Shown here one piece after another: positions 15,370 through 47,390 of a stretch of DNA of 52,455 nt. The first letter of the stretch is position 1, and every line of letters begins with the position of its first letter. Position numbers and translations under genes: made by a program. Below the pieces are notes generated by a model. That model did no database searches. It was not told the origin of the DNA and saw only the letters and a list, made by a program, of their open reading frames with translations. Origin of the DNA: an uncultured Cellvibrionaceae bacterium (GTDB lineage: Bacteria; Pseudomonadota; Gammaproteobacteria; Pseudomonadales; Cellvibrionaceae); contig CAYNST010000006.1 in assembly GCA_964399955.1 (NCBI GenBank), positions 7,103-59,557 on the forward strand. Direction: 5' to 3'.

Positions 15370-15852
15370 ATGGCTATTTATATTGAATACGCAGGTATAC
15401 AAGGAAACGTAACTGCAACCGGTTTTGCGAATCACATCAAAGTCATGTCTGTTCATTTTGGTGTAGGCCGCGGCATCTCCATGGAAGCTGGCAACATGGC
15501 CAACCGTGAAGCCACCCGTCCCAGCCTCAGCGAAATCACCTTCAGCAAGCTTGCTGATATCTCCTCAACCTCTCTGTTCAAAGAATCTGTAACCGGCGCC
15601 GCAGGCAAGCTGGTCAAGATCAAGTTTGTTCAGACTGGTGCAGAGCAGGTTGTGCAGTTCATGGACTACGAACTGGAAGATTGCCTGGTCAGTGGTTACT
15701 CCATCTCTGCCGACGGCGATGGTGACCCGATCGAGACCATCACCTTGAGCTTCGCCAAAATCATGGTTAACTACCACGACTACGACAAAGCCAACGCTGG
15801 CAAAAGCCCACAGCGCGTCGGTTACGATCTTACTGCTGCCAAACCTCTGTAG
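15370..15852 (+). CDS. hcp: type VI secretion tube protein Hcp (TssD)
   Basis: TAAGGAG ribosome-binding site 7 nt upstream. The 160-aa product aligns along its full length with Hcp1 of P. aeruginosa (MAIYIEYAGIQG..., ITFSKLADISST..., ETITLSFAKIMVNY). Immediately upstream of vgrG. Confidence 0.9.
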   Translation: MAIYIEYAGIQGNVTATGFANHIKVMSVHFGVGRGISMEAGNMANREATRPSLSEITFSKLADISSTSLFKESVTGAAGKLVKIKFVQTGAEQVVQFMDYELEDCLVSGYSISADGDGDPIETITLSFAKIMVNYHDYDKANAGKSPQRVGYDLTAAKPL

Positions 15853-15889
15853 TAGAACTTTTAAAGTCTGGGCGTTACGCCATTGGTTC

Positions 15890-15945
15890 GGCCTCACGGT
15901 TCCGCCAGTGGCTGTGTGCTGGCGCCAGCACACAGCTGTGAGGCC
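15890..15945 (+). promoter_or_regulatory. nested GC-rich stem-loop between hcp and vgrG (inner 12-bp gctgtgtgctgg/ccagcacacagc, outer 8-bp ggcctcac/gtgaggcc)
   Basis: Perfect inverted repeats read directly, 38 nt after the hcp stop. Candidate partial terminator or attenuator that would set the hcp:vgrG ratio. Confidence 0.45.
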
Positions 15946-16017
15946 AATACCAGAATTTGTAGAACCTCATGGATGAGCTGGGTGCCCTGTGCGCGGCTCT
16001 AGCAGGTAAGTGGTTGT

Positions 16018-17901
16018 ATGGGTCAGCTCACACAGGAACATCGCCTGATATCAGTTACCGACTTTGGCCTGGGCAAAGACACGTTTGTCATTACCGGTCT
16101 GGACGGCAGCGAGCACATCTCCGAACTCTTCGAGTTTCAGCTGGACCTCCTTTCTCCAGCACTGGCCATATCGCCGGATAAAGTGATTGGCAAGGCGGCA
16201 ACGGTCGTACTGCACACCCAGCAAGAGCGCGTCTTCCACGGCCTGGTCAAGTCTTTCGGTATCGGCGAGATGGGGCCGCACAATCACCGGCAGTACCGCC
16301 TAACCCTGGTGCCCTGGCTCTGGTTCTTGTCCAAGACGCAAAACTGTCGGGTGTTTCAGAAAAAGAACGTCAAGGAAATTGTCAGTCAAATCTTTGCCGA
16401 CCACAATTTCACCGATTTTGAATTCAAAGCAACCGGTGGGCAAAAGCGCGCATACTGCGTGCAGTACAATGAAAGCGATCTGCATTTTGTCAGTCGTTTA
16501 CTGGAAGAAGAAGGCATAGCCTATTTTTTCCAACACAGTCGCGACAAACACAACCTGATTCTGACGGACAAGTCCGAAACCTTCGAAGAAGTCCCGGAAA
16601 CCAACCTGGAGTTTTCCAAGGGCTCGGCACCCCACGCACAGATCACCGAGTGGCAGCGCCTGCACGAGTTTCGCAAAGGGCAGTGGACGCTTAACGACTA
16701 CGCCTACGAAGAGCCCAACAAAAACCTGCTGGCGCTGGAAAAAACCACCAGCCGTTTCCAAAACAATCAGCGCTTCGAGCACTACGAGTATCCCGGCCAC
16801 TACAGCAGCGCCGGGCGTGAGCGCGCCACAACCCGCCTGCAGGCAGAAGAAACCTTGCGCAACCGCGTGCGCGGCACCAGCGCATGCAGCAGCTTCTGTG
16901 CCGCCGGCCAGTTCCGCCTGGCCAAGCACGACACCGCAGCCGAACAGGGCAAATACGCGTTGGTGAGCGTGCATCACACCGCCACCGACAGCAGTTTTTA
17001 CAGCGGTGAGGCCGGCCAGAGTGGCTACAGTAATCGGTTTGTGTGCATTCCGGCCGACGTCACCTATCGGCCGGAGCCGCGACATCTGAAGCCGCAAATG
17101 CCCGGCCCACAATCTGCTGTTGTAGTCGGGCCCGCAGGAGAAGAGATCTATCTGGATGAGCTGGGCCGCATTAAGCTGCAGTTTCATTGGGACAGGGAAG
17201 GGCAAAAGAACGAGCACAGCTCCTGTTTTGTGCGGGTCATGCAGAGTTGGGCCGGCAATGGTTGGGGCAGTCACTTCATCCCGCGCATTGGTCATGAAGT
17301 AATTGTCAGCTTTCTGGACGGGGACCCGGACCGCCCACTGGTAACCGGCTCGGTCTACAACGGTAAAAACCGGCCGGCGGATTTCTCCAAATCGCAAAGC
17401 GGCATCAAGTCCCGCTCTACCAAGGGTGGCAACGCGCAGAACTTCAACCAACTGCGCTTTGATGACAAAAAAGGCGACGAAGAAATCTACCTGCACGCCG
17501 AAAAAAACCTGGCGCTGCACGTTGAAAACGACGAGACACGCACAGTAGAAAACGACCGCTTCAAAACGGTGCAGGGCAATCAGAGCGAAGAAGTCGGCAA
17601 AAACAAAAGCATTCGCGTGCAGGGCGAGCACAGCGAAGCCATCAGCAAGAACATGACCATTGTCATCGACAAAGACCTGTCGGAGACGGTGGGTGGGTCC
17701 TATACCGAAACGGTCGTCAAGGACTCCATGCATACGGCCAAAACCATTACCTTCAAGGCCGAGAAAGAAATAGTTCTGCAAACCGGCTCTGCCAAAATAG
17801 TTTTGAAAAACAATGGTGATATAACCATCAGCGGGAAAAACATATCCGTAAAAGGATCCGGCAACGTGGTCTTGAAAGGCAGCAAGGTCACCGCCAACTA
17901 A
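16018..17901 (+). CDS. vgrG: type VI secretion spike protein VgrG (TssI), short form without a C-terminal effector extension
   Basis: 627 aa. gp27-like N-terminus (FEFQLDLLS..., YRLTLVPWLWFLSKTQNCRVFQ), a gp5 OB-fold region and a C-terminal beta-helix of repeats (ETVGGSYTETVVKDSMHTAKTITFKAEKEIVLQTGSAKIVLK). Confidence 0.92.
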   Translation: MGQLTQEHRLISVTDFGLGKDTFVITGLDGSEHISELFEFQLDLLSPALAISPDKVIGKAATVVLHTQQERVFHGLVKSFGIGEMGPHNHRQYRLTLVPWLWFLSKTQNCRVFQKKNVKEIVSQIFADHNFTDFEFKATGGQKRAYCVQYNESDLHFVSRLLEEEGIAYFFQHSRDKHNLILTDKSETFEEVPETNLEFSKGSAPHAQITEWQRLHEFRKGQWTLNDYAYEEPNKNLLALEKTTSRFQNNQRFEHYEYPGHYSSAGRERATTRLQAEETLRNRVRGTSACSSFCAAGQFRLAKHDTAAEQGKYALVSVHHTATDSSFYSGEAGQSGYSNRFVCIPADVTYRPEPRHLKPQMPGPQSAVVVGPAGEEIYLDELGRIKLQFHWDREGQKNEHSSCFVRVMQSWAGNGWGSHFIPRIGHEVIVSFLDGDPDRPLVTGSVYNGKNRPADFSKSQSGIKSRSTKGGNAQNFNQLRFDDKKGDEEIYLHAEKNLALHVENDETRTVENDRFKTVQGNQSEEVGKNKSIRVQGEHSEAISKNMTIVIDKDLSETVGGSYTETVVKDSMHTAKTITFKAEKEIVLQTGSAKIVLKNNGDITISGKNISVKGSGNVVLKGSKVTAN

Positions 17902-17919
17902 AATCCGCTGCCCACCCAG

Positions 17920-17962
17920 CAACAGGCGCGCCGCTCACAGCTTGAGAGCGGCGCGCCTGTTG
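17920..17962 (+). terminator. 17-bp perfect GC-rich hairpin (caacaggcgcgccgctc / gagcggcgcgcctgttg, 9-nt loop) directly after vgrG
   Basis: Begins 19 nt after the vgrG stop. No U-tract follows. Confidence 0.45.
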
Positions 17963-18287
17963 CTGTTGAGTCACCGGTAGACCCGTGCTTGCGGGTAAAG
18001 CATGCCCGCACTGGATACACCGCCTCCTGGGCATGGGTGCCAAAAAAGACATTTGCGCGCGTGTTGGGCTTGTACTTTGTATCAATCGCACGTTTAATGA
18101 GCGCCTCGCGCGCCCCACGGCAGGGCTTCAGAGTGCCAGTGAAGTACAGCGGGGTGTGGGGCGACGGCTCACAGGCGGTCTGGGCGGCGCATATTCGCAG
18201 CCAACATGGCTGTTTACCCCAACCCGCCCCGGCCTTGGGCCACAACTTGCCAACGCGAGTTGCCAATCCAGTGTCAACAGCAAGTAG

Positions 18288-19721
18288 ATGTTCAAACCTG
18301 CTATGGATAATCCAGTTAAATTCAATCCTTGCGTACTGCCCCGCTTACGGGCCCGCGTCTATCTGGCGGTGCTGTTGACAGGCCTGATGGCCCTCTTCAG
18401 CGCGGACTTGATGGCACAGGCGCCCAGGGTGACCCCCGCCGACCTGCAGCACATGGATGACGAGCTACAAAAGCGGCTGGACACCTTTTACCGCGAGTGG
18501 CTCAAGAAGGCATCGGCGGAACAGAGGGGCAATCTGCAGACGGTAACAGCCGGTTTGACTGTGCATGAACCGGAACAAGCCCTGCGCCTGGGGTTGCAGC
18601 TGCGCGCCAACCTGGAGGCTTTGCATCAGGCGGCAGACGATGATCTGTATCGCCAGGCCCTGGCGCTGCTCTATGCCATCAATGATACGGCAACGGTCAG
18701 GCGCATCACCGACTTCCTCAACCAGCAGGGTAGCCCTGCGGCGCGGTCCAACAACTATATGCTGCTGGCGGGTTATTATTACGCGCGGCAAAACTGGGCG
18801 GGTGTGCGAGCCGCACTGCAGCGGGTGGACAGCAAATTGCTGCCGGCCGAGCAACAGGGCTATGCCGCACTGCTGCACGGCTACGCACTGCAGGCGTTGA
18901 AGCAGCATCGCGAAGCCGTGAGCTATTATCGCCACCTTCCGGAGGACTCGCCCTTTTTCGCCTACGCCAAGTTGAACGAAGGTACAGCTTATTTGCGCCA
19001 GGGCTGGTGGTCAGAGGCTTTTCTGGAGTTTGAGCAAGCCATCAAGAGCGCGCCCAAAGACAGCGAACTCAAAGATCGTGTGCTCGTCACCCTGGGCTTT
19101 GCGCAGATTCATCACGAATTCTACCGCCTTGCCCGGGCCACCCTGCGCAAGGTAAGCCTGTCCAGCCGGCACGCGCCCAAGGCTCAACTGGGTCTGGGCC
19201 TGGCCGCAACTCACCAGCAGGACTTGCGTCCGGCGCTTAACCTTTTTTTGCACCTGCTGGAAAGCAACAAAGTGGACGCCAGCGTTGATGAGGCCTACTT
19301 GCTGGCGGCCCACGTTTACGAAGAGCTGCAGCAAATGCCCCTGGCGGCAGAGGCTTATCGTCAAGCTATCGCCTTTTATCAGCGCCGCCTGGACGAAACC
19401 GACCGCGCCCGCGCACGTTTACAAGGCACCGGCCAGCCACTGGAGCCATTGCTTGCCGAACTGGAAGCCCAGTCAGAAGAATTCTACGCCACTGCGCAAC
19501 CCATTCCCGAATACCTGCTGGACAATCACCGGCGTTTGCAGGCAATGCAGAACTTGGCGCGAGAGGCGCAATTGAAGGTCACGCTGGGTGACTTGCTGCA
19601 GGGCACCGAGCAGCTACTGCGGTCGCTTGCGCTGGAGTCCATCGAGGTTCGGCAAAGCCTGTTGCACAGCTACATGAGTCAAGCCAAATACCGTCTGGCA
19701 ACCCTTTATGACAATGATTAA
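18288..19721 (+). CDS. secreted TPR-like repeat protein (477 aa)
   Basis: N-terminal hydrophobic segment RVYLAVLLTGLMALFSADLMAQAP, then helical-repeat/TPR-like composition (Ala/Leu/Tyr/Gln periodicity). Its stop overlaps the next gene's start. Confidence 0.55.
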   Translation: MFKPAMDNPVKFNPCVLPRLRARVYLAVLLTGLMALFSADLMAQAPRVTPADLQHMDDELQKRLDTFYREWLKKASAEQRGNLQTVTAGLTVHEPEQALRLGLQLRANLEALHQAADDDLYRQALALLYAINDTATVRRITDFLNQQGSPAARSNNYMLLAGYYYARQNWAGVRAALQRVDSKLLPAEQQGYAALLHGYALQALKQHREAVSYYRHLPEDSPFFAYAKLNEGTAYLRQGWWSEAFLEFEQAIKSAPKDSELKDRVLVTLGFAQIHHEFYRLARATLRKVSLSSRHAPKAQLGLGLAATHQQDLRPALNLFLHLLESNKVDASVDEAYLLAAHVYEELQQMPLAAEAYRQAIAFYQRRLDETDRARARLQGTGQPLEPLLAELEAQSEEFYATAQPIPEYLLDNHRRLQAMQNLAREAQLKVTLGDLLQGTEQLLRSLALESIEVRQSLLHSYMSQAKYRLATLYDND

Positions 19722-22469: not shown

Positions 22470-23051
22470 GTGACTAAGTTGTTGCGCTGCTCGATTGCCG
22501 TAATCCTGCTGCTGGTTCAATTGACCGGCTGCGGAACCAGCCCGCACAAATCCGGCCAATACGACAGCCTGAACCTGTTAAGCAATACCGAGCGACAAAA
22601 CTACGAGCGGGCACTGGCGCTGCTGGCCGAGGACAGCGCCAGCAGTGCTGAAGGCCTGTTGTTGAACCTGAGCCAGTCGCGCCCCAGCGTGGCGGAGGTT
22701 TGGTTGAATCTGGCCTTGGCGCATTACCACCAGGCTGAATGGGAGCAGGCCCAGCAGGCACTTACTCAATTATTGACGCTGCGCGAAGCCACCCACCAGG
22801 GGCACAACCTGGCCGGGCTGGTGGCGGTGCAGCAAGGGGAGTTTGAACGCGCGCGCCAGCACTACCAGCGCGCCCTTACCCTGCAGCCCAGCTACACCAA
22901 CGCGCTTTTCAATATGGCGTTGCTGCAGGATGTGTACCTGCAGGACATTGAGCAGGCCATGAATTTTTACCAGCGCTATATTGCCCTGGCGCCAGACGAT
23001 GAAGAAACAAAAAACTGGGCCGACAACCTGCAATACAGTTTGCCCGAGTGA
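22470..23051 (+). CDS. small TPR lipoprotein (about 193 aa from the GTG start)
   Basis: The in-frame GTG at 22470 gives MTKLLRCSIAVILLLVQLTGC-GTS (lipobox LTGC). The upstream ATG at 22365 would overlap the previous gene by 94 nt. TPR motifs follow (AEVWLNLALAHYHQAEWEQA, YQRALTLQPSYTNALFNMALL). Confidence 0.55.
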   Translation: MTKLLRCSIAVILLLVQLTGCGTSPHKSGQYDSLNLLSNTERQNYERALALLAEDSASSAEGLLLNLSQSRPSVAEVWLNLALAHYHQAEWEQAQQALTQLLTLREATHQGHNLAGLVAVQQGEFERARQHYQRALTLQPSYTNALFNMALLQDVYLQDIEQAMNFYQRYIALAPDDEETKNWADNLQYSLPE

Positions 23052-23060: not shown

Positions 23061-23333
23061 ATGCACGTAAGACATTTGTTTCTATTGCTGCTGCTCATAC
23101 CGCTGTTGCCCGCCCACGCCCAGGAGGTGATTGAGCTGGAAACCACCACCATCAAGGGCAACACCGAGCTGCCCAAATACCTGTATGTGGTGCCCTGGCA
23201 AAACAGTAAAAGCAAAGCCGGCGGAGACCGCAAACTCAAGCTGCCCAACCTGTACGGCGAATACTTCGACCCACTGATGCCGGCCCCTCTGGCTGCCGCG
23301 CACGAGATGGGCGCGCCGGCCATGCCGGACTAA
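23061..23333 (+). CDS. small secreted protein (90 aa, hypothetical)
   Basis: GAGGTAA ribosome-binding site and signal peptide MHVRHLFLLLLLIPLLPAHA-QEV. Last gene of the TPR operon. Confidence 0.5.
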   Translation: MHVRHLFLLLLLIPLLPAHAQEVIELETTTIKGNTELPKYLYVVPWQNSKSKAGGDRKLKLPNLYGEYFDPLMPAPLAAAHEMGAPAMPD

Positions 23334-24130: not shown

Positions 24131-26767
24131 TTATTGCAGCTGGTAGGCAAATTCGCCCTCTTCGCTGCAATCAATATGGATGGACTGGATACCGCTGCCT
24201 TCCGCCATCTTGGCCAGGCAGGCTTCTGCCAGGGCCGGCAGCAAAGAGCGGTTCAGAATATTCTCGATATTGCGTGCGCCGGTGTCGGTCTCCTGGCTGC
24301 GGGCCAGAATGTGCAGCAGTACGTCTTCGGCGTAGGTCAATTGCGCGTTGTAAGTGCTGCGCACGCGGCGCTCCAGGCGCTGCATATTGATTTCACAGAT
24401 TTTCAACAAGTCTTCGTCGGCCAGCGGGTAATAGGGGATAACGGCGGTGCGACCCAGAAACGCCGGCTTGAAGTGGCGCAACAACTGCGGGCGGAAGTTA
24501 TCCAGCAGTACCTCCGGGTCTGGCCGTTCTTCGCTGGCGGCGCAAAGGGCGCGGATGTGTTCTTCACCGGCGTTGGAGGTCATGATGATCACGGTATTGC
24601 GGAAGTCGATATCGCGGCCTTCACCGTCTTTGATGGTGCCCTTGTCAAACAGGTTGTAAAACACATCCTGCACGCCCGGATGGGCTTTTTCCATTTCGTC
24701 GAACAGCACCACGCTGTAAGGTTTGCGTCGCACGGCCTCGGTCAGCACACCGCCTTCGCCGTAACCGACGTAGCCGGGAGGGGAGCCGAGCAGCATGGAA
24801 ATTTTATGTTCTTCCTTGAATTCCGACATGTTGATGACGGTGAGATTCTGCTCGCCGCCGTAGAGTACATCTGCCAGCGCCAGTGCGGTTTCGGTTTTGC
24901 CCACGCCGCTGGGGCCCACCATAAAAAATACGCCGATGGGTTTGCGCACATCGGTCAGTCCCGCCCGCGCGGTGCGAATACTTTGGCCTATGGCCTCCAG
25001 TGCGTGGCGCTGACCAATAACGCGTTCATTGAGTGCGTCGGGCAAGCGCAGTATCTGCTGGATCTCGTCGGCCAGCATTTTACCTACGGGAATACCGGTC
25101 CAGTTGGCCACCACTTCTGCCACCGCCTGACCGTCGACGTTGATCTTGATCATCGGCTCCTCGCGCTGAACGGCGGCAAGTTCGGCCATCAAACCGTGCA
25201 GGCGATGTTTGTCGGGCTGGTCGTCGTCGGATTCCAGGCCGTTGTCAAAGGCGTGTTCCAGCCGCTCTTGAACGGCGTGGATGTCCGCCACAATTTTTTT
25301 CTCCATGGACCACTGCTCTTCCTGCAGTACCAGTTTTTCTTCCAGCTGGGACTGTTCCACTCGCAGCGCTGCCAGGGCCTCTTCACTGCCACCAATGGCG
25401 GCGTTCTCCCGCGCCAGGGACTGGCGGTTGTTCTGGCACTGAGTGATGCGGCGGCGGGTGTCTTCGATGGCTGCAGGCGTGGCGCTTTGGCTTAGTGAAA
25501 CCCGGGCACAGGCGGTATCCAGCAGGCTAACGCATTTATCCGGCAGCTGGCGCGCGGTGATATAACGGCTGGACAGGCGCACGGAGTCCACAATCGCCTC
25601 GTCCAATACCCGCACCTTGTGGTGGCGCTGCAGCATGGGCGCCATTGCGCGCATCATGTCAATGGCGCGTGCCTCGCTGGGCTCCTCTACTTTGACTACT
25701 TGGAAGCGGCGGGTCAGCGCGGGGTCGCGCTCAAAGTATTTCTTGTACTCTGCCCAGGTGGTGGCGGCAATGGTGCGCAGCTCGCCGCGCGCCAAGGCAG
25801 GTTTGAGGAGATTGGCCGCATCGCCCTGGCCTTCTTTGCCACCGGCGCCAATCATGGTGTGCGCCTCGTCAATAAACAGTATGACCGGCTCGGCGGAGTT
25901 TTTGACTTCACTGATCACGGATTTCAGGCGGTTTTCAAACTCGCCTTTGACGCTGGCGCCGGCCTGCAGCAGGCCCAGATCCAGGCTGCGCAGGGCCACA
26001 CCCTTGAGTGGATCGGGCACGTCGCCCTGGGCAATTCGCAGCGCCAGCCCCTCGACCACTGCGGTTTTACCCACGCCCGCCTCACCGGTCAGTATTGGGT
26101 TGTTCTGCCGTCTGCGGATGAGGACATCAATGATCTGGCGAATTTCCTCGTCGCGGCCAAGTACCGGGTCGATGCGGCCGCTTTTGGCCTGAGCCGTGAG
26201 GTTGATGGTGTATTTGTCCAGGCTGGGGGTTTTGCTGGGTGCGCCTGTGGGCGCTTCGCTGCTGTCGCTGACCGACTCGGCAGAGCTGGACGATTTGCCT
26301 GTGCTTTTGCTGCGCATGTGGCGCACGGCCTCACGCAAGGCTTCGGCGGGCAGGCGCTGCAGGGCCTCGCTGGCTACACTGCGGCGCAGGCCGTCGTCGC
26401 TGATCAAGGCGGCCAGCAGGTGGCCGGGGTGAACGGCGGCGGCGCCAAATTCAATGGAGGCCAACAGCCAGGCGTTTTTGCACAGGTCCACAATGGTGGG
26501 GGATAGCGCCGGTGCACGGGTGTTGCCGGTCTGCAGGCGGTCCAGCTCCCGGTTCAGGTTTTGCAATACGCGCGCAGGCTCCAGGTCAAATGCCTGCAAC
26601 AGTCCGCGCAGGTCGCCGTTGTCCAGCTCCAGCAGTTTTACCAGCCAGTGCTCCAACTCCACATTGTAGTGGCTGCGAGACAGACAAAGGCCTGCGGCGC
26701 CTTCCAGAGATACGCGGCAGGCTTCGTCGAGTGAGCCAACCAGAGATTTCAGATCAATGTTCATCAT
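24131..26767 (-). CDS. clpV: T6SS AAA+ ATPase ClpV (TssH)
   Basis: 878 aa with a Clp N-domain and two AAA modules (GEAGVGKTA; GPSGVGKTETALALA). The start overlaps the tssG stop (ATGA). Confidence 0.93.
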   Translation of the reverse strand: MMNIDLKSLVGSLDEACRVSLEGAAGLCLSRSHYNVELEHWLVKLLELDNGDLRGLLQAFDLEPARVLQNLNRELDRLQTGNTRAPALSPTIVDLCKNAWLLASIEFGAAAVHPGHLLAALISDDGLRRSVASEALQRLPAEALREAVRHMRSKSTGKSSSSAESVSDSSEAPTGAPSKTPSLDKYTINLTAQAKSGRIDPVLGRDEEIRQIIDVLIRRRQNNPILTGEAGVGKTAVVEGLALRIAQGDVPDPLKGVALRSLDLGLLQAGASVKGEFENRLKSVISEVKNSAEPVILFIDEAHTMIGAGGKEGQGDAANLLKPALARGELRTIAATTWAEYKKYFERDPALTRRFQVVKVEEPSEARAIDMMRAMAPMLQRHHKVRVLDEAIVDSVRLSSRYITARQLPDKCVSLLDTACARVSLSQSATPAAIEDTRRRITQCQNNRQSLARENAAIGGSEEALAALRVEQSQLEEKLVLQEEQWSMEKKIVADIHAVQERLEHAFDNGLESDDDQPDKHRLHGLMAELAAVQREEPMIKINVDGQAVAEVVANWTGIPVGKMLADEIQQILRLPDALNERVIGQRHALEAIGQSIRTARAGLTDVRKPIGVFFMVGPSGVGKTETALALADVLYGGEQNLTVINMSEFKEEHKISMLLGSPPGYVGYGEGGVLTEAVRRKPYSVVLFDEMEKAHPGVQDVFYNLFDKGTIKDGEGRDIDFRNTVIIMTSNAGEEHIRALCAASEERPDPEVLLDNFRPQLLRHFKPAFLGRTAVIPYYPLADEDLLKICEINMQRLERRVRSTYNAQLTYAEDVLLHILARSQETDTGARNIENILNRSLLPALAEACLAKMAEGSGIQSIHIDCSEEGEFAYQLQ

Positions 26768-33758: not shown

Positions 33759-33908
33759 AGTCCTTTCCTCTGTTAACAAGCAAGTATCAACCCGTGGCAT
33801 GGCGCCGGGTCAAATCTGGTTGGTGCCACCGTTGCAATTACTGCGGTGGCAGTGAGCCCGGCCATAAATGCCCGGCGCGCCGCAGGTTGCCTTCCTGCGG
33901 CAATGAGT

Positions 33909-39703: not shown

Positions 39704-42700
39704 ATGAAACGATTTTTTGCCTTTATCACCCACCCGCTGATGCTCTCCGCCATCGGTCTGCTGGCGCTTGGCCTGCTGATCTGGTTCGTGGGGCCGCAGA
39801 TCAAGTTTGGCGAGCACAATCGCGCCCCGCTGGGCAGTGAACGGGCGCGCCTGCTGAGCATCATTGTGCTGCTGGCAATCTGGGGGCTGCACAACTTCTG
39901 GATGCACTACCGAGGAGTGCGCGCCAACCGCGCCCTGGTGGCGGGTTTGCACGACGATGCGGAGCCCTCCGCTGCGCAGGACCCGAACATGAGCGAAAGC
40001 GAGCGCGCGCAAATCAGCGCCCAGTTCGAGCGCGCCATCAACACCCTCAAACGCTATAAATTCAAGGGCGCCCGCGGCAGCAAGGCGCTTTACCAGTTGC
40101 CCTGGTATGTGATCATCGGCCCGCCCGGCTCGGGCAAAACCACCGCTCTGATCAACTCCGGTTTGGAATTTCCCCTGGCCAAGGAAACCGGCGGCCACGC
40201 CGTGCAGGGCATAGGCGGCACACGCAACTGTGACTGGTGGTTCACCAATGAAGCGGTATTGATAGATACCGCCGGCCGTTACACCACCCAGGACAGCCAC
40301 CGGGTGCAGGACGGCGGCGCCTGGCAGGGGTTTCTCGATTTGCTCAAGCGCCACCGCCGCCGCCGGCCCATCAATGGCGCCATCGTTGCCATCAGCCTGC
40401 AGGACCTGCTCACCCAAACAGAGCATGAGCGCAAACAACATGCACGCGCCGTGCGTGAGCGTCTTGACGAGCTGATGAGCAAACTCAACATCCGCTTTCC
40501 GGTTTATGTGGTCTTGACCAAGACCGACCTGGTCAGTGGCTTTACCGAGTTTTTTGCCGAATTCTCCCGCGATGAGCGCGAGCAGGTCTGGGGGGTGTCT
40601 CTGCCTGCATCCACCAAGGACGACTGCGTGCAAGCCGTGCAACTGGTAGCAGGCGAACTGGAGCAGTTGACCCAGCGGCTCTACACGCGTCTGTTTGCAC
40701 GCCTGCATCAGGAGCGCGACGGCCGCCGACGCACCGCCATTGCTGCCTTCCCGCAGCAATTTGAAAACGCCCAGGCCCAGGCGGTGAGTTTTGTGCAGCA
40801 GGTTTTTGCCCTGGACCACTACAAGCAACAACCGCTGCTGCGCGGCGTGTATTTTACCTCCGGGGTGCAGGACGGTACGGCCGTTGACCGGCTGATGAGC
40901 GCGGTGTCCGGCAACTTCGGTTTTGGTCGCCAACTGAACCATTCGGCGGAATCCAGCGGCAAGAGCTTCTTCTTGACTCAACTGTTCCGCGAGGTCATCT
41001 TTCCCGAGGCCGACCTGGTGGGCAGCAATCCCGTCTATGAGCGCACCGCCGTGTGGCTGCGTCGCGCCAGTTATGCCGCCATGGCCCTGCTCACGGTGGG
41101 ATTGGGCGTGTTCTGGTCCGGCGAGCTGGTGCGCCATCAAAGCTACCTGAGTGCGGTCAGCGCCGAGGTGCAAAACTATCGCAGCCAGCCTGCAGGCGCC
41201 GAACAGCCCGCCGAGGCCACACTGCTTGCCCTGCCGGCACTGGATGCTTTGGCGCAGGCCGCACAGATAGGCGAGCATTTGAAACCGACTGCCGCCTGGC
41301 GCTTTGGTCTGAGCGACCCACGGGTGGACGATTCGGCCATCGCGGCCTATCGGCAACAGCTAAGGGAGCGCCTTCTGCCACAGCTGGTCTCCACCCTGGG
41401 GCAGGCGGTCGAGCGCAGCCAGGACAGCCTGTTGTACGATAACTTCCGCGTTTACATGATGTTAGGCAAACCGGAGTATCTCAGCCCCGAGCGGGTTAGC
41501 GACTGGTTTGACGAGCACTGGCAGAGCGCCTGGGCCTTGGAGGCGGATACCCGCAGCCGTCTGGCGTTTCATCTGGACAACCTCCTCAAGCTGCCGCTGC
41601 AGCCGCAGGTGTTGGATACTGACCTGGTGCAGGACACCCGCGACCGCCTGTTGGCCGAACCCACCGCACAGCGCGTTTATTCTCGTTTGCGCGCACATCC
41701 CATGTACAGCCGGCGGGTGGATATGCTCAGCCAGTTTGGCAACAACGCCCGCAGAGCCTTCCGCCTGGATGCCGAGGCCCGCGCCCGTTTGCAGGTGCCC
41801 CTGCTGTTTACCAAGGAAGGGTATGACCATGTTGACCTGTCCGCCCGCTCGCCCCTGCTGGCGGACCTTTTGAGCGAGACCTGGGTATTGGTGGACGCCG
41901 GCACGCCGGAGGAAACCCTGGTGGACATGTCCGAGGTGCCGGCGCAGGTAGAGGCGCTGTACATGGCGGACTACATCCGCGTCTGGAGCGACCTTTACCG
42001 GCAGTTGGGGGTGGTGGAGTTCACCAGCCTGCAGCACGGCAAAGACATTCTGGCCGCGCTGGCCGACCCCGCCTACTCCCCGCTGGTGGCGGTATTGCGC
42101 GTGGGCCGCAACAACACTCAGCTGCGCCCGCCAAAAGACCAGCTTGAAGCCCTGGCGGCCAAGGCACCGCCGCGCGGCGGCCGGGCCGCCAAACTTGCGG
42201 TGGGGGCGGCCTTGAACCAGTACGAAGGCACGCCGGTGGACAACCGCTTCGCCGACCTCAACGGCCTGTTTGGCGACAGTGGCGGGGTGGGCACGGTGCT
42301 GGATCAAATTGGTCAACTGCACGCCTATCTGGCGGATATCACCTTCGCCCCGGAACCGCCGCAGCAGGCGTTCGAGGAAGCGCGCAAGCGCTTCTCCGGC
42401 GGCGGTGGCAATGCCATTACCGCACTGCAGTCCTTCGCCAGTACCGCGCCGGAACCCTTGCGCGGCTGGCTGGACGATCTGGCGCGCCAGAGCTGGAAGG
42501 TGGTGCTGGGGGCCGCTCGCCGCCACGCCGCCGACGAATGGCGCGAGTCGGTCTACCTGCCTTACAGTCGCACACTGCAGGGCCGCTACCCCTTGAACCG
42601 CAATGCCACTGACGAGGCCACGCTCTACGCCTTCTCCGAGTTTTTCAAGCCCGGCGGCACCCTGGACCAGTACTATCAGGACTACATGGCGCCCTTTGTG

Positions 42701-43240
42701 CAGGCCCGCGGCGGCTGGCGCAACCGGGTAGTGGACCACTACAGCCTGGGCTTCTCCGGCGAATTTCTGGAGCAGATGCGCCGCGCGCAGAGCATCAAGG
42801 ACAGCCTTTATCTAGAAAGCCCGGACACTATCAGCCTGACCATGCAGCTGCGGCCCAAGACCATGGATGCGCGGGATGCACGCTTTCATCTGGACATTGG
42901 CGGCGAGCGCCTGTCCTACAACCACGGCCCCAAATTCTGGCAGACGCTGAAGTGGCGGGCCGATCAGGAGAACATGCGGGTGCGCATCGCCTTTGAAGAT
43001 GTGGGCGGCACCCAGTACGACCGCAGTTTTTTTGGCCCCTGGGCCTGGTTCCGCATGCTGGACGCTTCCTACGTGGAAAAAACCGCGCAGTCAGCCACCT
43101 ATTTATTGACCTTCCTGGCCTCCGCCAGCGGTGGCGAGAGTGACCCGCACAAGATCATTTATGAAGTGAAGGCCAACAGCATTGACAACCCCCTGCGACG
43201 GGACCTGTTGAGCGGCTATCACTGCCCCGAGTCAATCTGA
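39704..43240 (+). CDS. tssM: T6SS membrane complex protein TssM (IcmF)
   Basis: 1178 aa; N-terminal TM helices, Walker A GPPGSGKTTAL, and the large IcmF-related periplasmic domain. Confidence 0.93.
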   Translation: MKRFFAFITHPLMLSAIGLLALGLLIWFVGPQIKFGEHNRAPLGSERARLLSIIVLLAIWGLHNFWMHYRGVRANRALVAGLHDDAEPSAAQDPNMSESERAQISAQFERAINTLKRYKFKGARGSKALYQLPWYVIIGPPGSGKTTALINSGLEFPLAKETGGHAVQGIGGTRNCDWWFTNEAVLIDTAGRYTTQDSHRVQDGGAWQGFLDLLKRHRRRRPINGAIVAISLQDLLTQTEHERKQHARAVRERLDELMSKLNIRFPVYVVLTKTDLVSGFTEFFAEFSRDEREQVWGVSLPASTKDDCVQAVQLVAGELEQLTQRLYTRLFARLHQERDGRRRTAIAAFPQQFENAQAQAVSFVQQVFALDHYKQQPLLRGVYFTSGVQDGTAVDRLMSAVSGNFGFGRQLNHSAESSGKSFFLTQLFREVIFPEADLVGSNPVYERTAVWLRRASYAAMALLTVGLGVFWSGELVRHQSYLSAVSAEVQNYRSQPAGAEQPAEATLLALPALDALAQAAQIGEHLKPTAAWRFGLSDPRVDDSAIAAYRQQLRERLLPQLVSTLGQAVERSQDSLLYDNFRVYMMLGKPEYLSPERVSDWFDEHWQSAWALEADTRSRLAFHLDNLLKLPLQPQVLDTDLVQDTRDRLLAEPTAQRVYSRLRAHPMYSRRVDMLSQFGNNARRAFRLDAEARARLQVPLLFTKEGYDHVDLSARSPLLADLLSETWVLVDAGTPEETLVDMSEVPAQVEALYMADYIRVWSDLYRQLGVVEFTSLQHGKDILAALADPAYSPLVAVLRVGRNNTQLRPPKDQLEALAAKAPPRGGRAAKLAVGAALNQYEGTPVDNRFADLNGLFGDSGGVGTVLDQIGQLHAYLADITFAPEPPQQAFEEARKRFSGGGGNAITALQSFASTAPEPLRGWLDDLARQSWKVVLGAARRHAADEWRESVYLPYSRTLQGRYPLNRNATDEATLYAFSEFFKPGGTLDQYYQDYMAPFVQARGGWRNRVVDHYSLGFSGEFLEQMRRAQSIKDSLYLESPDTISLTMQLRPKTMDARDARFHLDIGGERLSYNHGPKFWQTLKWRADQENMRVRIAFEDVGGTQYDRSFFGPWAWFRMLDASYVEKTAQSATYLLTFLASASGGESDPHKIIYEVKANSIDNPLRRDLLSGYHCPESI

Positions 43241-43977
43241 TGGACAACTCTGTAGGAATTCTTGGCAAATTGCCAATGCACGGCGATTTCGTACAGCGCA
43301 ACCTGCCGGGGCCGGTGATCAACCTCTGGCACGAGTGGCTGCAGGACTTTGTTGGCAGCACGCAGGAGCAACTGGCGGATGCCTGGCTGGACATCTACCT
43401 GACCTCGCCCATCTGGCGGTTTTACCTGTCCCCGGGCGTCATCGACAGTCGTCCCTGGGCCGGCATTTTGCTACCCAGTGTGGACCGCGTCGGCCGCTAC
43501 TTTCCGCTGCTGCTGACCCGCCCCCTGCCGGCAGACACCCTGGCCACCGTTTTCATTGAGCAGCAGCACGACTGGTTCCGTGCCCTGGAAGACGCCGCAC
43601 TGGCGGCGTTGGACGGGCAGATGAACGTTGACGGCTTGTTGAGCCGGGTAGCCGAGCTGCCAATGCCGGCCCCTGAACTTGCGGCCTGGCAACTTAAGGT
43701 GCCGCTGCGCCAGGGCTTGGTGGTGGAGCAGCACGAAGAGGCAAAAGGCGTGTCTGGCTCGCCCCAGCCACGGCTGTTGCAGGCTTTGATCAATCAATCG
43801 TTCCCCAGTTACAGCCTCTGGAGCACCGAGGGTTCGGTGCGGGTGGAGCCCTGTTGCGTCATCAGCGGCGGGCTGCCGCCGCTGGGACAGGCCCCGGCCC
43901 TGTTGGACGGCCTGTGGGAACATTGGCAATGGAGCGCACCCTTTGCGGTGTCGGAAAGGAATCTGAAGGCAGAATAA
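43240..43977 (+). CDS. tagF: T6SS-associated protein TagF
   Basis: N-terminus GILGKLPMHGDFVQRNLP...W..W, as in the TagF/DUF2094 family. Start overlaps the tssM stop. Confidence 0.85.
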   Translation: MDNSVGILGKLPMHGDFVQRNLPGPVINLWHEWLQDFVGSTQEQLADAWLDIYLTSPIWRFYLSPGVIDSRPWAGILLPSVDRVGRYFPLLLTRPLPADTLATVFIEQQHDWFRALEDAALAALDGQMNVDGLLSRVAELPMPAPELAAWQLKVPLRQGLVVEQHEEAKGVSGSPQPRLLQALINQSFPSYSLWSTEGSVRVEPCCVISGGLPPLGQAPALLDGLWEHWQWSAPFAVSERNLKAE

Positions 43978-43980
43978 TTC

Positions 43981-44769
43981 ATGGAAAGTGTAACAAAGGA
44001 CGACACCTGCAGGCGCCCAAGAGTGTGGACCTGCAGCGCCAAGAGTGATCGTGGTAAGGTAAGACAAATCAACGAAGATGCCTTCCTGGCCCGGGACGAC
44101 ATTGGCCTGTGGGCGGTGGCGGACGGCATGGGCGGGCACAGTATTGGCGATGTGGCCAGCCGCATGATCATTGACGCCCTCGCCCCGGCCACCGCAGAGC
44201 CGCGCCTGAGTGCGCTGGTGGAGAGTGTCGAAGAGCGGCTGTTGCAGGCCAACAACGACATCATTCAGTATTCACGTACGCTGTTTGAAAAAGACGCCAG
44301 CATGGGCAGCACCTTGGTCAGCCTGGTGCTGAAGGGGCAGGTGGGTGCGTGTCTGTGGGTGGGGGATTCCCGGCTATACCGCTGGCGCAAGCAGCATCTC
44401 ACCCAGCTCACCCGCGACCACAGCCAGGTGCAGGAGCTTATAGATCGCGGCCTGCTGGACCCGACAAAGGCCCGGCAGCACCCGCAGGCCAACGTCATCA
44501 CCCGGGCAATTGGTGCGGATACCGGCTGCTTAATTGACCTGAACGTCTTCAATGCGCAGCCCGGCGATGTGTTTCTGTTGTGCAGCGACGGTCTTTCCAA
44601 TACTGTTCCGCCCGACGAGCTGGGGCGGCTGCTGCCGTTGGGCAGCGCGGAAGAGGCGGCCTGTGCTTTGCTGGACTCAGCCTTGGCACGCGGCGCGCCG
44701 GATAACGTCACCTTGATTGTCGTCAAAACCGCCTTCGGGCCCGCCCCTGTGGCGGTGCAGGCTCCCTGA
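43981..44769 (+). CDS. pppA: PP2C-type Ser/Thr phosphatase PppA
   Basis: FLARDDIGLWAVADGMGGHSIGDVAS plus C-terminal GAPDNVTLIVV; the usual T6SS threonine-phosphorylation-pathway partner of PpkA. Confidence 0.88.
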   Translation: MESVTKDDTCRRPRVWTCSAKSDRGKVRQINEDAFLARDDIGLWAVADGMGGHSIGDVASRMIIDALAPATAEPRLSALVESVEERLLQANNDIIQYSRTLFEKDASMGSTLVSLVLKGQVGACLWVGDSRLYRWRKQHLTQLTRDHSQVQELIDRGLLDPTKARQHPQANVITRAIGADTGCLIDLNVFNAQPGDVFLLCSDGLSNTVPPDELGRLLPLGSAEEAACALLDSALARGAPDNVTLIVVKTAFGPAPVAVQAP

Positions 44770-44819
44770 ATTTTATCCTGCCCTCCAGTGTGCGCGGGCA
44801 ATAACGGCTGTAACCACTG

Positions 44820-47390
44820 ATGATCGACCCGGATCACAACAAAACCCGCCTGGTGAAACCCAAGGGTAACACCGTGCATGCCGATGAGCAGGCACCTACC
44901 CAGGTTGAGCGCGGTGCAGACAGCAAAAAAACCGGGCCCGGCCGCCGCAACGACGCCACCGTGCTGGATGGCCGCGTCAGTCCCACGCAAATGGCCGAAG
45001 GTGCGCCCACTCAGGCGTTCGGCTCTGCAGCCGCAGGTGCGGGCGCTGGCGGTGCCATGCCGGAGATTCTCAAAAACCGCTTCATTCTGGAGCGGGTACT
45101 GGGCGCCGGTGGCATGGGGGTGGTCTACAAAGCCAAGGATCTTTTAAAGGTAGAGGCGCAGGACCGCGAGCCCTACGTGGCCATCAAGGTGCTGGGGGAG
45201 GAGTTCCGCTCCCACCCGGAGGCGTTCATTGCCCTGCAGCGGGAATCCCGCAAAACCCAGCGCATTGCCCACCCCAACATTGTGACCGTCTACGATTTTG
45301 ACAAAGACGGCGACACGGTCTTCATGACCATGGAATACCTGGAAGGCGCGCCGCTTGACCGGCTGATCAAGCAGTATCGCGCCACCGGGCTGCCCCACCG
45401 GGATGTGTGGCAGATCCTCAACGGTATCTGCGCGGCCCTGGCCTACGCCCACCAGCAGAACATCGTGCACGCCGACCTGAAGCCCGGCAATATTTTTGTG
45501 ACCGGGCACAACCTGGCCAAGGTGTTTGATTTTGGCATTGCCCGCGCCGTTGCCCAGGCCGATGTGCTGGAGCCCACTGACGCGCAAAAAACCGGTTTTG
45601 TGCTGGCGGGCGCCCGCAAGGGCGCCGACCACACGGTATTTGATGCAGCCACTCTGGGCGCCTACACCCCAGCCTACGCCAGCCTGGAGATGCTGCAGGG
45701 CGCGCCGCCGGATGTGCGTGACGACATCTACGCGCTGGGTTGCATTGCCTATGAAATGCTCACCGGGCGTCACCCCTATCAGCGCAAGAACGCAGCCGAG
45801 GTTTACAGCGAAGGCCTGCGGCCGGCGCGCATTTCCGGCATTAGCAGCAATCAGTGGCGGGCCATTGAGAGTGCATTGGCCGTCAAGCGCGGGGCTCGGT
45901 TGCCGTCCGTGCCTGCCTTTCAGGCGCTGATCAGTCAGCCGGTCAGTCGGTCCTACCGGGGCTGGTTGCTGGCCGCACTGCTGGCCGCCGGTGCGGGTGG
46001 GGCGGGGTGGTTCCAGTGGCAGCAACGCGAACTGCCCCCGCCGGTGCCGCCGGTGTCCGAAAATGACGTGCGGGTGGAGATAGAACAGCGCATTCGGGTA
46101 GAGCTGGTGCAAAACACCATTAACGCACTGCTGGCGGAGCCCAGCTTTGACGAGCGTTGGCAGGATCTGCTGTGGAACGAAATGCAGAACCTGCACGCGC
46201 TGGTAGGGGAAACCGGCGAGCCGGTACCGGAGCTCAACCGGCAGATTCTGCAGCTTTACGTGCAGCAGGCCGAAGCTATGCTTGAGGAGCAGGCCTTTGA
46301 GCGCGTGGCGCAATTGCTGCAGCGCGCCGAGGTTTACCAGGCAGAGCCGGACGAGCTGCAAGCTTTAAACGATCGGCTGCAGGCGGCCATTGCACAACAG
46401 ACCGCCGAGGAAGCCGAAGCGCGCGCTGCCCGCCAGCAGCAGGAGGCGCGCCGGCAGGAAGCGCGCCAGCGGCAGCAGAACGAACAGGCCTACGCCGCCG
46501 CACTGGACAACGTCAATGAACAATTGAGCTGTAAAACACCGGTCGCCATGGAAGACCTGGCCATCGCGGTCAAGCGCCTGCAGGCGGTCAACGCCCAGGC
46601 TTACAGTGTTGCGGAGAACAGCATTGTCCAGCGGCTGGCGGGTTGTATTCGCACCCTGGCCACCGCGCAGCCGGAGCGCGCCCGCGTGCTGCAGCAGGAA
46701 GCGCTGGCACTGTTCGGCAACCACCGAGAGCTGCAGGGCATCACCATCGCCGAAAAAGACCCCTGCAGCCCCAAACTTGCAGGGCTTGGCGCACGCAACA
46801 AGGGCGCCAGGTGTCAGGACAGCTGGGCCGGCGGCGGCCGTGGACCGCAGCTGGTGGTGATCCCCAAGTCGCCGCAGTTGGCAAGCTTTGCCATTGGCCG
46901 CTACGAAGTCAGCGTGGAGGACTTTAACGAATACTGCAGCGCCGCCGCCAACTGCCGGCCGCTGGCAGGCGACCCCACTCTGCCGGCCACCGGGTTGTCG
47001 GTTCAGCAAATTCAGGCTTACCTGCAGTGGCTGAGCGAGCGCAGCGGCCACACTTATCGCTTGCCCAGTCGCGAGGAATGGCAATACGCGGCGCGCGCCA
47101 ACAGCCAGAACCTGCCGTCCAATCGCATTTGCCAGCTGAACACCCGCGGGCTGCAAATTGGCGGCGCACTGGTGGCGGTCAATCTGGGCCAGCAAAACCC
47201 CTGGGGGCTGATCAACTCCGTCGGCAATGCGCGCGAGTGGGTGCAGGCAGGCGCAAGCCACCGCGCCATGGGCGGCTCCTTCGCCACACCCATGGACGAG
47301 TGCTCGGTTGCCACAGAACATCAGCCGAACGCGCAGGGCGACGGCGAAACCGGCTTCCGTGTGGCGCGTGAGCTTGCTGGCGTGCAGTAA
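44820..47390 (+). CDS. ppkA: Ser/Thr protein kinase PpkA with a TM segment and a C-terminal FGE-sulfatase-like domain
   Basis: Hanks kinase motifs (GAGGMGVVYKA, HADLKPGNIFV, DIYALGCIAYEMLTG). TM segment GWLLAALLAAGAGGAGWF. The C-terminal ~170 aa (46870-47390) carry FGE/SUMF1-type motifs RLPSREEWQYAAR and NPWGLINSVGNAREWV. Confidence 0.88.
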   Translation: MIDPDHNKTRLVKPKGNTVHADEQAPTQVERGADSKKTGPGRRNDATVLDGRVSPTQMAEGAPTQAFGSAAAGAGAGGAMPEILKNRFILERVLGAGGMGVVYKAKDLLKVEAQDREPYVAIKVLGEEFRSHPEAFIALQRESRKTQRIAHPNIVTVYDFDKDGDTVFMTMEYLEGAPLDRLIKQYRATGLPHRDVWQILNGICAALAYAHQQNIVHADLKPGNIFVTGHNLAKVFDFGIARAVAQADVLEPTDAQKTGFVLAGARKGADHTVFDAATLGAYTPAYASLEMLQGAPPDVRDDIYALGCIAYEMLTGRHPYQRKNAAEVYSEGLRPARISGISSNQWRAIESALAVKRGARLPSVPAFQALISQPVSRSYRGWLLAALLAAGAGGAGWFQWQQRELPPPVPPVSENDVRVEIEQRIRVELVQNTINALLAEPSFDERWQDLLWNEMQNLHALVGETGEPVPELNRQILQLYVQQAEAMLEEQAFERVAQLLQRAEVYQAEPDELQALNDRLQAAIAQQTAEEAEARAARQQQEARRQEARQRQQNEQAYAAALDNVNEQLSCKTPVAMEDLAIAVKRLQAVNAQAYSVAENSIVQRLAGCIRTLATAQPERARVLQQEALALFGNHRELQGITIAEKDPCSPKLAGLGARNKGARCQDSWAGGGRGPQLVVIPKSPQLASFAIGRYEVSVEDFNEYCSAAANCRPLAGDPTLPATGLSVQQIQAYLQWLSERSGHTYRLPSREEWQYAARANSQNLPSNRICQLNTRGLQIGGALVAVNLGQQNPWGLINSVGNAREWVQAGASHRAMGGSFATPMDECSVATEHQPNAQGDGETGFRVARELAGVQ

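Follow-up and report, generated by a model that had tools for sequence, protein, structure and literature searches.

A dual-TssC type VI secretion system in a Cellvibrionaceae genome and its conserved linkage to a putative split Agl/Glt-type module

The T6SS (type VI secretion system) encoded on a stretch of 52,455 nucleotides from an uncultured Cellvibrionaceae bacterium (assembly GCA_964399955.1, contig CAYNST010000006.1, positions 7,103 to 59,557; the whole stretch is referred to here as the window) is a further member of a known lineage with two TssC proteins, complete and intact. Two groups of genes associated with it are predicted to make up, between them, a core complex of the Agl/Glt type, with a TPR half (tetratricopeptide repeats; 18288-23333) between vgrG and clpV and a motor half (47947-50735) behind ppkA. 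Comparison with related loci shows this T6SS and the putative split Glt-like module to be one evolutionary unit across several gammaproteobacterial families, with dozens of carriers from sea and soil. The reading we favour, namely that this clade of T6SSs has the module as its dedicated accessory, is given a probability of about 0.55, a figure that includes the T6SS model set out below. The original prediction for this stretch had the TPR genes separating hcp-vgrG from the tss operon and listed ExbB/TonB among the neighbours; a view of them as spacers or unrelated neighbours is abandoned here as both gene sets are conserved with the T6SS lineage (linkage kept in 44 of 45 loci).

The genes of the window were assigned from a list of open reading frames (ORFs) and from Pfam and NCBIfam profile scans using the curated cut-offs. 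The predicted module consists of the following genes:

18288..19721, plus strand: GltC-like exported TPR protein (TPR477), 477 aa; weak TPR matches in Pfam, N-terminal signal-like segment
19708..22458, plus strand: GltD-like TPR lipoprotein (TPR916), 916 aa, lipobox LVAC; TPR matches in Pfam
22470..23051, plus strand: GltE-like TPR lipoprotein, about 193 aa; Pfam TPR_1 and TPR_2, NCBIfam GltE model at E=3e-8, below its cut-off
23061..23333, plus strand: small secreted protein sm90, 90 aa; signal peptide, motif GNxELPxxLYVVPW
47947..48567, plus strand: AglR/ExbB/TolQ-like proton channel, 206 aa; Pfam MotA_ExbB, under the equivalog cut-offs of NCBIfam for TolQ and ExbB
48580..49164, plus strand: TolR/ExbD-like protein 1, 194 aa; Pfam ExbD
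49154..49660, plus strand: TolR/ExbD-like protein 2, 168 aa; Pfam ExbD
49782..50735, plus strand: GltG-like TonB-family transducer, 317 aa; NCBIfam NF033768 (AgmX/PglI C-terminal domain), 78 bits versus a cut-off of 40

The core complex described for Gammaproteobacteria comprises aglR, aglQ, aglS, gltC, gltD, gltE and gltG plus one extra gene, always forms a single cluster and has no known function (Luciano 2011). According to Table S3 of that study its TPR proteins measure about 550-690 aa (GltC-like), 950 aa (GltD-like) and 160-260 aa (GltE-like), and its motor proteins about 220 aa (TolQ-like), 170-185 aa (two TolR-like) and 325 aa (TonB-like). The proteins of the window, with 477, 916, about 193 and 90 aa followed by 206, 194, 168 and 317 aa, come in the corresponding order; TPR916 fits the GltD homologues in size, the GltE-like protein fits in both size and position, and a skipped locus tag in Table S3 corresponds to the extra small gene.

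All three TPR proteins and sm90 carry a signal peptide or a lipobox. Homologues of TPR916 (25-53% identity over 97-100% of the length) are always found in the gene order TPR-TPR-TPR-small, and TPR477 shares 29% identity with the product of the first TPR gene of the unsplit Glt-like clusters L095 and L089. The motif of sm90 is conserved in T6SS-linked as well as in free-standing clusters; no Pfam or NCBIfam family matched this protein. The ORF of the GltE-like gene opens at 22365, the GTG at 22470 being the likely start, which yields MTKLLRCSIAVILLLVQLTGC. The NCBIfam models of GltC and GltD gave no match at E values up to 0.01, the GltE model giving the weak match listed above.

For the TonB-like protein, which has one N-terminal transmembrane helix, the ORF opens at 49758 and an identical database protein has 317 aa; its next NCBIfam matches are the Myxococcus gliding proteins GltJ (3e-14) and GltG (9e-12), both below the equivalog cut-offs. 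The ExbB-like protein is 64-74% identical to its counterparts behind ppkA in four other genera. Judged by eye, TolR/ExbD-like protein 1 appears to have an Asn (FLNLMV) at the usual position of the proton-binding transmembrane Asp of TolR and ExbD, which is kept in TolR/ExbD-like protein 2 (SLMDIF). This contrast between the two proteins is retained in T6SS-linked and free clusters (homologues in L089-L096), suggesting an obligate asymmetric stator pair.

To collect relatives of the T6SS, TssC2 of the window was used as the query against genomes, one for each species, which yielded 74 loci; linkage was counted in those 50 genome loci whose sequence goes on for 1.5 kb or more past clpV. TPR or small genes were detected beyond clpV in 42 of the 50, L012 has tonB and exbD in this position and in L006 the TPR block lies on the opposite side. 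Linkage was found in 44 of the 45 loci with a TssC2 identity to the window of 57.7% or more and in none of the five more distant ones. The first TPR gene is co-directional with clpV in 37 loci, the gap between the two, as extrapolated, having a median of about 80 bp, and in L088 the called clpV and TPR genes overlap. No Glt-like genes were detected in the alphaproteobacterial dual-TssC loci examined.

The context of the motor half was derived from four contig look-ups starting from TonB-like homologues at only 39-41% identity. The order tssM-tagF-pppA-ppkA followed by exbB-exbD-exbD-tonB-like was found in Colwellia echini, Teredinibacter sp. ISS155, an Agarilytica metagenome-assembled genome (MAG) and another MAG. 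Synteny stops right after the tonB-like gene, the downstream genes being different in each of the four genomes. A small ORF of 74-132 aa precedes exbB in three of them, and no homologue of it was detectable in the window. Both halves flank one T6SS on single contigs in Colwellia echini (L090 and L053) and in CABFPG010000008 (L091 and L007).

The linkage survives at least four gene orders. In the common one the two divergent T6SS operons carry one half of the module each at their 3' ends. The order of the window, hcp-vgrG and the TPR block followed by an opposite-facing clpV, recurs in L002-L004, L068, L070 and L087; L049 and L072 have the order ppkA-exbB-exbD-exbD-tonB-tssA...clpV-TPR, and L012 represents another one. 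Unsplit clusters were found beside hcp-vgrG-PAAR (L094, 35% GltD-like identity to the window), 7 kb from fha with housekeeping genes between (L089, 34%) and with no T6SS in sight (L096, 25%). In L006 (CAYSTJ010000010.1, about 1-11300) tssC2-tssE-tssF-tssG-clpV comes directly after the TPR block and small gene, and tssA, tssB and tssC1 are missing upstream, an arrangement that reflects either a further rearrangement or a mis-join of the MAG.

Some instances may have gone unnoticed in the earlier survey. Table S3 of Luciano 2011 lists T. turnerae TERTU_1670-1672 (205, 173 and 165 aa) as an orphan motor, sizes which are those of the T6SS-linked genes, and gives two TPR sets about 22 genes apart for Hahella chejuensis (HCH_02601-03 and HCH_02626-34); both cases may be T6SS-linked. 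A link of a T6SS to Glt, Agl, AgmX, ExbBD or TolQR was not found in the literature searched, a search from whose reach most subscription journals were excluded and which is weak evidence of novelty. Likewise, the available sections of a 2023 structure review (PMC10433429) name peptidoglycan-related T6SS accessories and no TolQR/TonB-type motor.

The T6SS itself is encoded by the following genes of the window:

15370..15852, plus strand: hcp (tssD), tube protein, 160 aa; Pfam T6SS_HCP, 109 bits versus a cut-off of 23.5
16018..17901, plus strand: vgrG (tssI), spike, 627 aa, without C-terminal effector extension; Phage_GPD, Phage_base_V, Gp5_trimer_C, TIGR03361 with 600 bits
24131..26767, minus strand: clpV (tssH); NCBIfam TIGR03345, 1261 bits versus a cut-off of 885
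26764..27951, minus strand: tssG; Pfam T6SS_TssG, 279 bits
27915..29831, minus strand: tssF; Pfam T6SS_TssF, 725 bits
29740..30237, minus strand: tssE; Pfam GPW_gp25
30239..31678, minus strand: tssC2, TssC40-type second paralogue of the sheath large subunit, 479 aa; Pfam VipB and VipB_2, TIGR03355 with 457 bits
31746..33239, minus strand: tssC1, canonical TssC41-type sheath large subunit, 497 aa; TIGR03355, 695 bits, full length
33243..33800, minus strand: tssB; Pfam T6SS_VipA, 200 bits
33909..35051, minus strand: tssA; Pfam ImpA_N, TIGR03363 with 296 bits
35052..35371, no strand: intergenic region from which the tssA and fha operons diverge, from the gene coordinates
35372..36775, plus strand: fha (tagH); Pfam FHA and T6SS_FHA_C, TIGR03354
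36772..37272, plus strand: tssJ, lipoprotein; Pfam T6SS-SciN, TIGR03352
37318..38652, plus strand: tssK; Pfam T6SS_VasE, 522 bits
38672..39670, plus strand: tssL, short form, 332 aa; Pfam DotU only, one transmembrane helix at residues 276-294
39704..43240, plus strand: tssM; Pfam IcmF-related_N, IcmF-related, IcmF_helical, IcmF_C
43240..43977, plus strand: tagF, stand-alone; Pfam TagF_N, TIGR03373
43981..44769, plus strand: pppA, PP2C phosphatase; Pfam PP2C_2
44820..47390, plus strand: ppkA, Ser/Thr kinase; Pfam Pkinase at residues 90-338, FGE-sulfatase at 684-810

In agreement with the original prediction of a complete T6SS with a Fha/PpkA/PppA/TagF module, the 13 core families and four accessory ones (fha, tagF, pppA, ppkA) were all detected above curated cut-offs and at the coordinates stated before, Hcp exceeding the Pfam cut-off while staying under that of the narrower NCBIfam model. 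The structural genes are all intact, and their family matches extend over the full length. The sheath, tube and spike are represented by VipA, by VipB plus VipB_2 twice, by T6SS_HCP and by Phage_GPD with gp5 domains, all above the gathering scores; the baseplate and the cap or priming function by GPW_gp25, T6SS_TssF, T6SS_TssG, T6SS_VasE, ImpA_N and TIGR03363; and the membrane complex by T6SS-SciN, DotU and the four IcmF domains, with transmembrane helices and a lipobox present. The phosphorylation module is represented by Pkinase, PP2C_2, FHA with T6SS_FHA_C, and TagF_N.

The genes tssA-tssB-tssC-tssC-tssE-tssF-tssG-clpV form a minus-strand operon running from 35051 down to 24131, and a divergent plus-strand operon comprises fha-tssJ-tssK-tssL-tssM-tagF-pppA-ppkA (35372-47390). 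The ORF of hcp opens at 15319, whereas the family match and the start MAIYIEY favour 15370; the start of tssF is uncertain, with an overlap of 92 nt with tssE and a family match from residue 29. It had been stated that hcp-vgrG are separated from the tss operon by TPR genes, which is correct for 18288-23051, but the 90-aa gene and a short-chain dehydrogenase (SDR) gene (23357-24103, minus strand) that had not been mentioned also lie between them and clpV.

TssC1 and TssC2 share 39% identity over 448 aa and are thus divergent paralogues rather than a recent duplicate, as had been judged by eye. The phylogeny proposed for assigning the system was run on TssC (53 proteins, neighbour-joining, 476 columns, 100 bootstraps). 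The second-gene copies of Alpha- and Gammaproteobacteria form one clade and the first-gene copies another, both nodes having a bootstrap support of 100, and the window copies fall into the TssC41- and TssC40-type clades. The TssC2 of the window groups with the second copies of R. etli, Azospirillum and Tistrella (bootstrap 100), and the sister of the first-gene clade consists of single-copy TssC proteins of roseobacters and Rhizobium. Rhizobium etli NXC12 has the Agrobacterium gene order, the Tistrella and Azospirillum plasmids carry two tandem tssC genes each, and TssC1 of the window is 63-68% identical to the product of the first tssC of alphaproteobacterial tandem pairs. Since both clades contain Alpha- and Gammaproteobacteria, the duplication is ancient and common to the Agrobacterium-type systems of Rhizobium, Azospirillum and Tistrella.

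In the literature searched, two tssC genes have been noted in Agrobacterium (PMC3702570) and in roseobacters (PMC9515649). The statement that this arrangement is that of the alphaproteobacterial TssC41/TssC40 pair was therefore right as regards the duplication itself, which the tree identifies as the same ancient event, but not as regards a restriction to Alphaproteobacteria: the tandem tssC1-tssC2 is kept in about 60 of the 74 species-level loci, mostly gammaproteobacterial ones, and most of the others end just upstream of tssC2. The closest matches of TssC2 (72-74%) are in Saccharophagus sp. K07, Marinagarivorans and Cellvibrionaceae MAGs, which agrees with the gammaproteobacterial host suggested earlier. 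The next carriers are Cellvibrio, Teredinibacter, Kangiellaceae, Aliikangiella, Colwellia, Agaribacterium, Parendozoicomonas and several sulfur-oxidiser MAGs.

In the alignment TssC1 and single-copy TssC proteins have a conserved N-terminal segment which TssC2 lacks, and the match of TssC2 to TIGR03355 begins only at model position 35. Among eleven genomes TssC1 has a mean pairwise identity of 0.63 in its first 60 residues and TssC2, unconstrained in this part, one of 0.29, while the body of TssC2 beyond the N-terminus is conserved at 0.58-0.72. TssC's N-terminal helix is the docking site of ClpV (PMC5048182), and in A. tumefaciens both TssC copies are needed for the secretion of Hcp, TssB being co-stabilised by TssC41 only (PMC3702570). 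With low confidence we infer that TssC2 might be a specialised sheath subunit which is not addressed by ClpV, for example in a baseplate-proximal or terminal layer.

TssL of the window consists of a DotU domain and one transmembrane helix and lacks a peptidoglycan-binding domain; a Pfam search revealed no peptidoglycan-binding or lytic domain in any protein of the island. With 332 aa it resembles TssL of six close relatives (303-323 aa), compared with the long form of 512-524 aa in alphaproteobacterial loci and with residues 367-470 of TssL in A. tumefaciens (PMC3953482). Its N-terminus reads DHT17VLRPTPG, and the motif D[RKH]T[VI]x[RK]PxPG is present in TssL of the relatives and of Tistrella, in which the Thr is residue 14. 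PpkA is composed of the kinase, a weakly hydrophobic segment at about residues 395-413 and a C-terminal FGE-sulfatase domain, an architecture shared by L090-L093 from four other genera. In P. aeruginosa an FGE-sulfatase-type fold is found on the separate TagR protein, and PpkA has a vWA domain. Nothing relevant to a link between TagR and formylglycine was found in the literature searched. In A. tumefaciens, the only case for which this phosphorylation is known, PpkA phosphorylates Thr14 of TssL, to which Fha then binds (PMC3953482).

Building on the gene content, homology, conserved linkage and island boundaries established above, the working of the T6SS and every functional step of the proposed coupling are presumed as follows. 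PpkA would span the inner membrane with its FGE-sulfatase-type sensor domain in the periplasm and, upon a periplasmic cue, would phosphorylate a threonine, most likely Thr17 of TssL by analogy to Thr14 of A. tumefaciens TssL; TssL is thus the likely phospho-acceptor rather than Fha. Binding of Fha to the phosphothreonine may then allow the baseplate (TssEFGK-VgrG) to dock on TssJLM, TssA would prime the growth of the Hcp tube and the TssB/TssC1 sheath, the contracted sheath would be recycled by ClpV via the N-terminal helix of TssC1, and PppA and TagF would turn the T6SS off. The Glt-like parts would provide a TolQ/TolR-like stator driven by protons, a TonB-like transducer that spans the periplasm, and TPR lipoproteins in the periplasm or the outer membrane. 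With the proton motive force such a module might position the membrane complex in the envelope or anchor it there; alternatively, it might pass on a signal of the envelope or of contact to PpkA's periplasmic domain. Only tentatively do we suggest that the clade present in Cellvibrionaceae, Kangiellaceae, Colwellia and sulfur-oxidiser MAGs captured an Agl/Glt-type motor with its TPR scaffold as a built-in accessory and thereby coupled firing, placement or contact sensing to the proton motive force.

The main rival explanation is that the Glt/Agl-like genes represent an independent envelope system which shares the island by co-transfer or by a past insertion of the T6SS beside or into a Glt-like cluster that was already there, with no mechanistic coupling. 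Free-standing unsplit clusters of like composition without a T6SS do exist (L096; Luciano 2011, Table S3), the cluster of L089 at its distance from fha looks like a loose neighbourhood, and the dual-TssC T6SSs of Alphaproteobacteria and distant Gammaproteobacteria do without the module. However, the linkage persists in nearly all members of the clade, in several families and through the rearrangements described above; the halves are placed co-directionally at the 3' ends of T6SS operons with short gaps or overlaps; synteny breaks immediately outside the Glt-like genes; and the two-way split of a seven- or eight-gene complex around the locus of another machine seems hard to keep without joint selection. 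An independent system is possible but doubtful. It seems very unlikely that the ExbB/ExbD/TonB-like proteins energise an ordinary TonB-dependent uptake, for example of metal-binding T6SS effectors via a TonB-dependent receptor. Their Pfam matches (MotA_ExbB, ExbD, and TonB_C with 28.7 bits versus a cut-off of 24.6) would allow for it, but no receptor gene (Plug or TonB_dep_Rec) was detected in the islands of the window, L090, L091 and L093, the one of L092 being 5 kb off in a separate FecIR unit; the scores stay far below the NCBIfam equivalog cut-offs (51 bits versus 206 for ExbB, 21 versus 153 for ExbD); and the TonB-like protein's C-terminal domain is of the AgmX/PglI type. Furthermore, the partner genes encode three TPR lipoproteins as in Glt clusters.

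Several points weigh against a dedicated accessory all the same. Linkage can reflect co-transfer without functional coupling, and the dual-TssC T6SS of Agrobacterium works without the module, so that it is not essential to the machine as such. The module is absent from alphaproteobacterial and distant gammaproteobacterial dual-TssC loci. The gaps in the window are long (387 bp from vgrG to the first TPR gene, 557 bp from ppkA to exbB) and scans for promoters and terminators gave results at chance level, uninformative on the operon structure, so that any co-transcription in the window is putative. The idea of anchoring is weakened because the module-less relatives L056, L058 and L062 also have a short TssL. 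The sample for the context of the motor half is small (eight linked loci), and the assignment of the TPR proteins to Glt proceeds from size, order and a chain of 25-30% similarities, with NCBIfam Glt hits that are weak (GltE) or missing (GltC, GltD). Finally, the window contains no PAAR or effector gene and the activity of the T6SS would depend on loci elsewhere.

This lack of cargo genes also bears on the question whether the T6SS is silent or crippled. As originally predicted, Pfam scans of candidate ORFs and tblastn with proteins of related loci detected no PAAR, DUF2169, DUF6484 or PAAR-like toxin in the window; DUF4123 was not among the Pfam results for the scanned ORFs, although no dedicated query for it was made. 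The sister locus L087 encodes DUF6484 and DUF2169 proteins, a PAAR-like toxin, a HEAT-repeat protein, three unknowns and an SseB-like protein between vgrG and the first TPR gene (1664-8089). In the window only the 387-bp spacer (17902-18287) is found at this position, suggesting that the cargo block was lost or never gained. Cargo islands of T6SSs are commonly encoded away from the main locus, the search covered the window alone and all structural genes are intact; a silent or crippled system is therefore regarded as unlikely and the cargo as encoded elsewhere. Least probable among the alternatives is redundancy or decay of TssC2, which would then be a duplicate without a role of its own. It evolves faster than TssC1, as seen from branch lengths and pairwise identities, and has lost the conserved N-terminal segment, but in every locus examined it is an intact ORF of 435-540 aa with conserved structural domains, the duplication is older than the spread over Alpha- and Gammaproteobacteria, and deletion of tssC40 in A. 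tumefaciens abolishes the secretion of Hcp (PMC3702570). This explanation is largely refuted already.

Viewed in this comparison, the T6SS and its duplicated TssC are ordinary, the duplication being old and widespread and Agrobacterium genetics being in existence. Should the module indeed serve the T6SS as a dedicated accessory, the Glt core complex of Gammaproteobacteria, for which there has been none since 2011, would gain its first function, and for the first time a T6SS would be connected to a motor of the TolQR/TonB class, adding a motor driven by the proton motive force to the accessory modules. The conserved embedding in a T6SS island offers a concrete testable role for the core Agl/Glt complex of non-gliding Gammaproteobacteria, and the linkage gives an idea of how T6SSs may handle the envelope or sense contact when their TssL is short and a peptidoglycan-binding partner is missing. 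Experiments are feasible since carriers are in culture: Colwellia echini A3, C. psychrerythraea GAB14E, Aliikangiella marina, A. coralliicola, Agaribacterium haliotis and Saccharophagus sp. K07.

The genome region also contains several further genes. The SDR gene between sm90 and clpV has no counterpart in any related locus; in L087 a Cu/Zn superoxide dismutase gene and an exosortase-like gene occupy its position, which thus represents a variable spot inside the island. An inverted repeat with a 12-bp stem is located at 47445-47471, 55 bp past the stop codon of ppkA in the long spacer before exbB. About 0.7 kb past the tonB-like gene an open frame (51338-52455, plus strand) runs off the end of the window and encodes a two-partner secretion (TPS) domain (Pfam, 108 bits); it is the start of a TPS exoprotein. 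In L094 a giant TPS protein is likewise encoded beside hcp, and two contact-dependent systems may be co-located.

On the other side, the region 5440-14180 (plus strand) encodes a 1751-aa ATPase (DUF3686/DUF7902/AAA) preceded by a DUF2059 protein and two membrane proteins, one of 217 aa with three transmembrane helices and one of 644 aa with an N-terminal one, neither having a Pfam match. A PADLOC search gave no meaningful match for the DUF3686 gene and its neighbours. The genes of the two membrane proteins (hyp217 and hyp644, 5440-8053) were considered as the genes for the roughly 205-aa and GltC-like proteins of a second Glt cluster and rejected, as no similarity was found. A 273-aa protein with a weak match to the Pfam Proteasome subunit family (38 bits) is encoded at 2878-3699 (plus strand), followed by an FtsJ/S4 methyltransferase and a DUF423 protein, which are unrelated to the T6SS.

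Compared with the imp-type T6SS of Agrobacterium and R. etli, the system of the window has in common the tandem tssC genes from the same duplication, PpkA, PppA, TagF and Fha and the N-terminal Thr motif of TssL, and the core proteins of R. etli NXC12 are 29-65% identical to its own. The imp-type layout assumed in the original prediction is not retained, however. Where the imp order has tssA-B-C-C-tagJ-E-F-G-fha-K-L-M-tagF/pppA-ppkA facing one way, the window has two divergent operons, with a TssJ and with tagF and pppA as genes of their own; TagJ is missing and TssL is short, without the peptidoglycan-binding domain; moreover, PpkA has the C-terminal FGE-sulfatase domain, no effector genes lie beside vgrG and the Glt-like module is attached. 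A similarity search with TagJ of R. etli revealed no homologue in the window, and TPR228, considered as a TagJ analogue, was rejected owing to its lipoprotein signal and its lack of similarity to that protein.

The predicted module resembles the Agl/Glt core complex (Luciano 2011) in its eight gene types, of which the GltC-, GltD- and GltE-like ones are putative, their sizes and internal order, the AgmX/PglI domain, the two unlike TolR-like genes and the small secreted protein. It differs in that the published clusters are contiguous with no T6SS link mentioned, whereas the cluster of the window is split between two T6SS ends and is without the first gene of free Glt-like clusters (about 205 aa). 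Similar to the H1-T6SS of P. aeruginosa (TagQRST-PpkA-Fha1-PppA, TagF), the window encodes the kinase and the phosphatase along with an FHA protein and TagF within its cluster and has an envelope set beside the kinase, but it carries the FGE-sulfatase domain on PpkA itself and has no tagQ, tagS or tagT genes. With the anchoring accessories listed in the available sections of the structure review (evolved TssL, TagL, TagN/TagP, TagV, TagX and MltE; PMC10433429) the module would share periplasmic or outer-membrane proteins encoded with the T6SS, which for these accessories are proposed to aid the membrane complex in coping with the cell wall; none of those listed there is a proton-driven TolQR/TonB-type motor with TPR lipoproteins, as is predicted for the module of the window.

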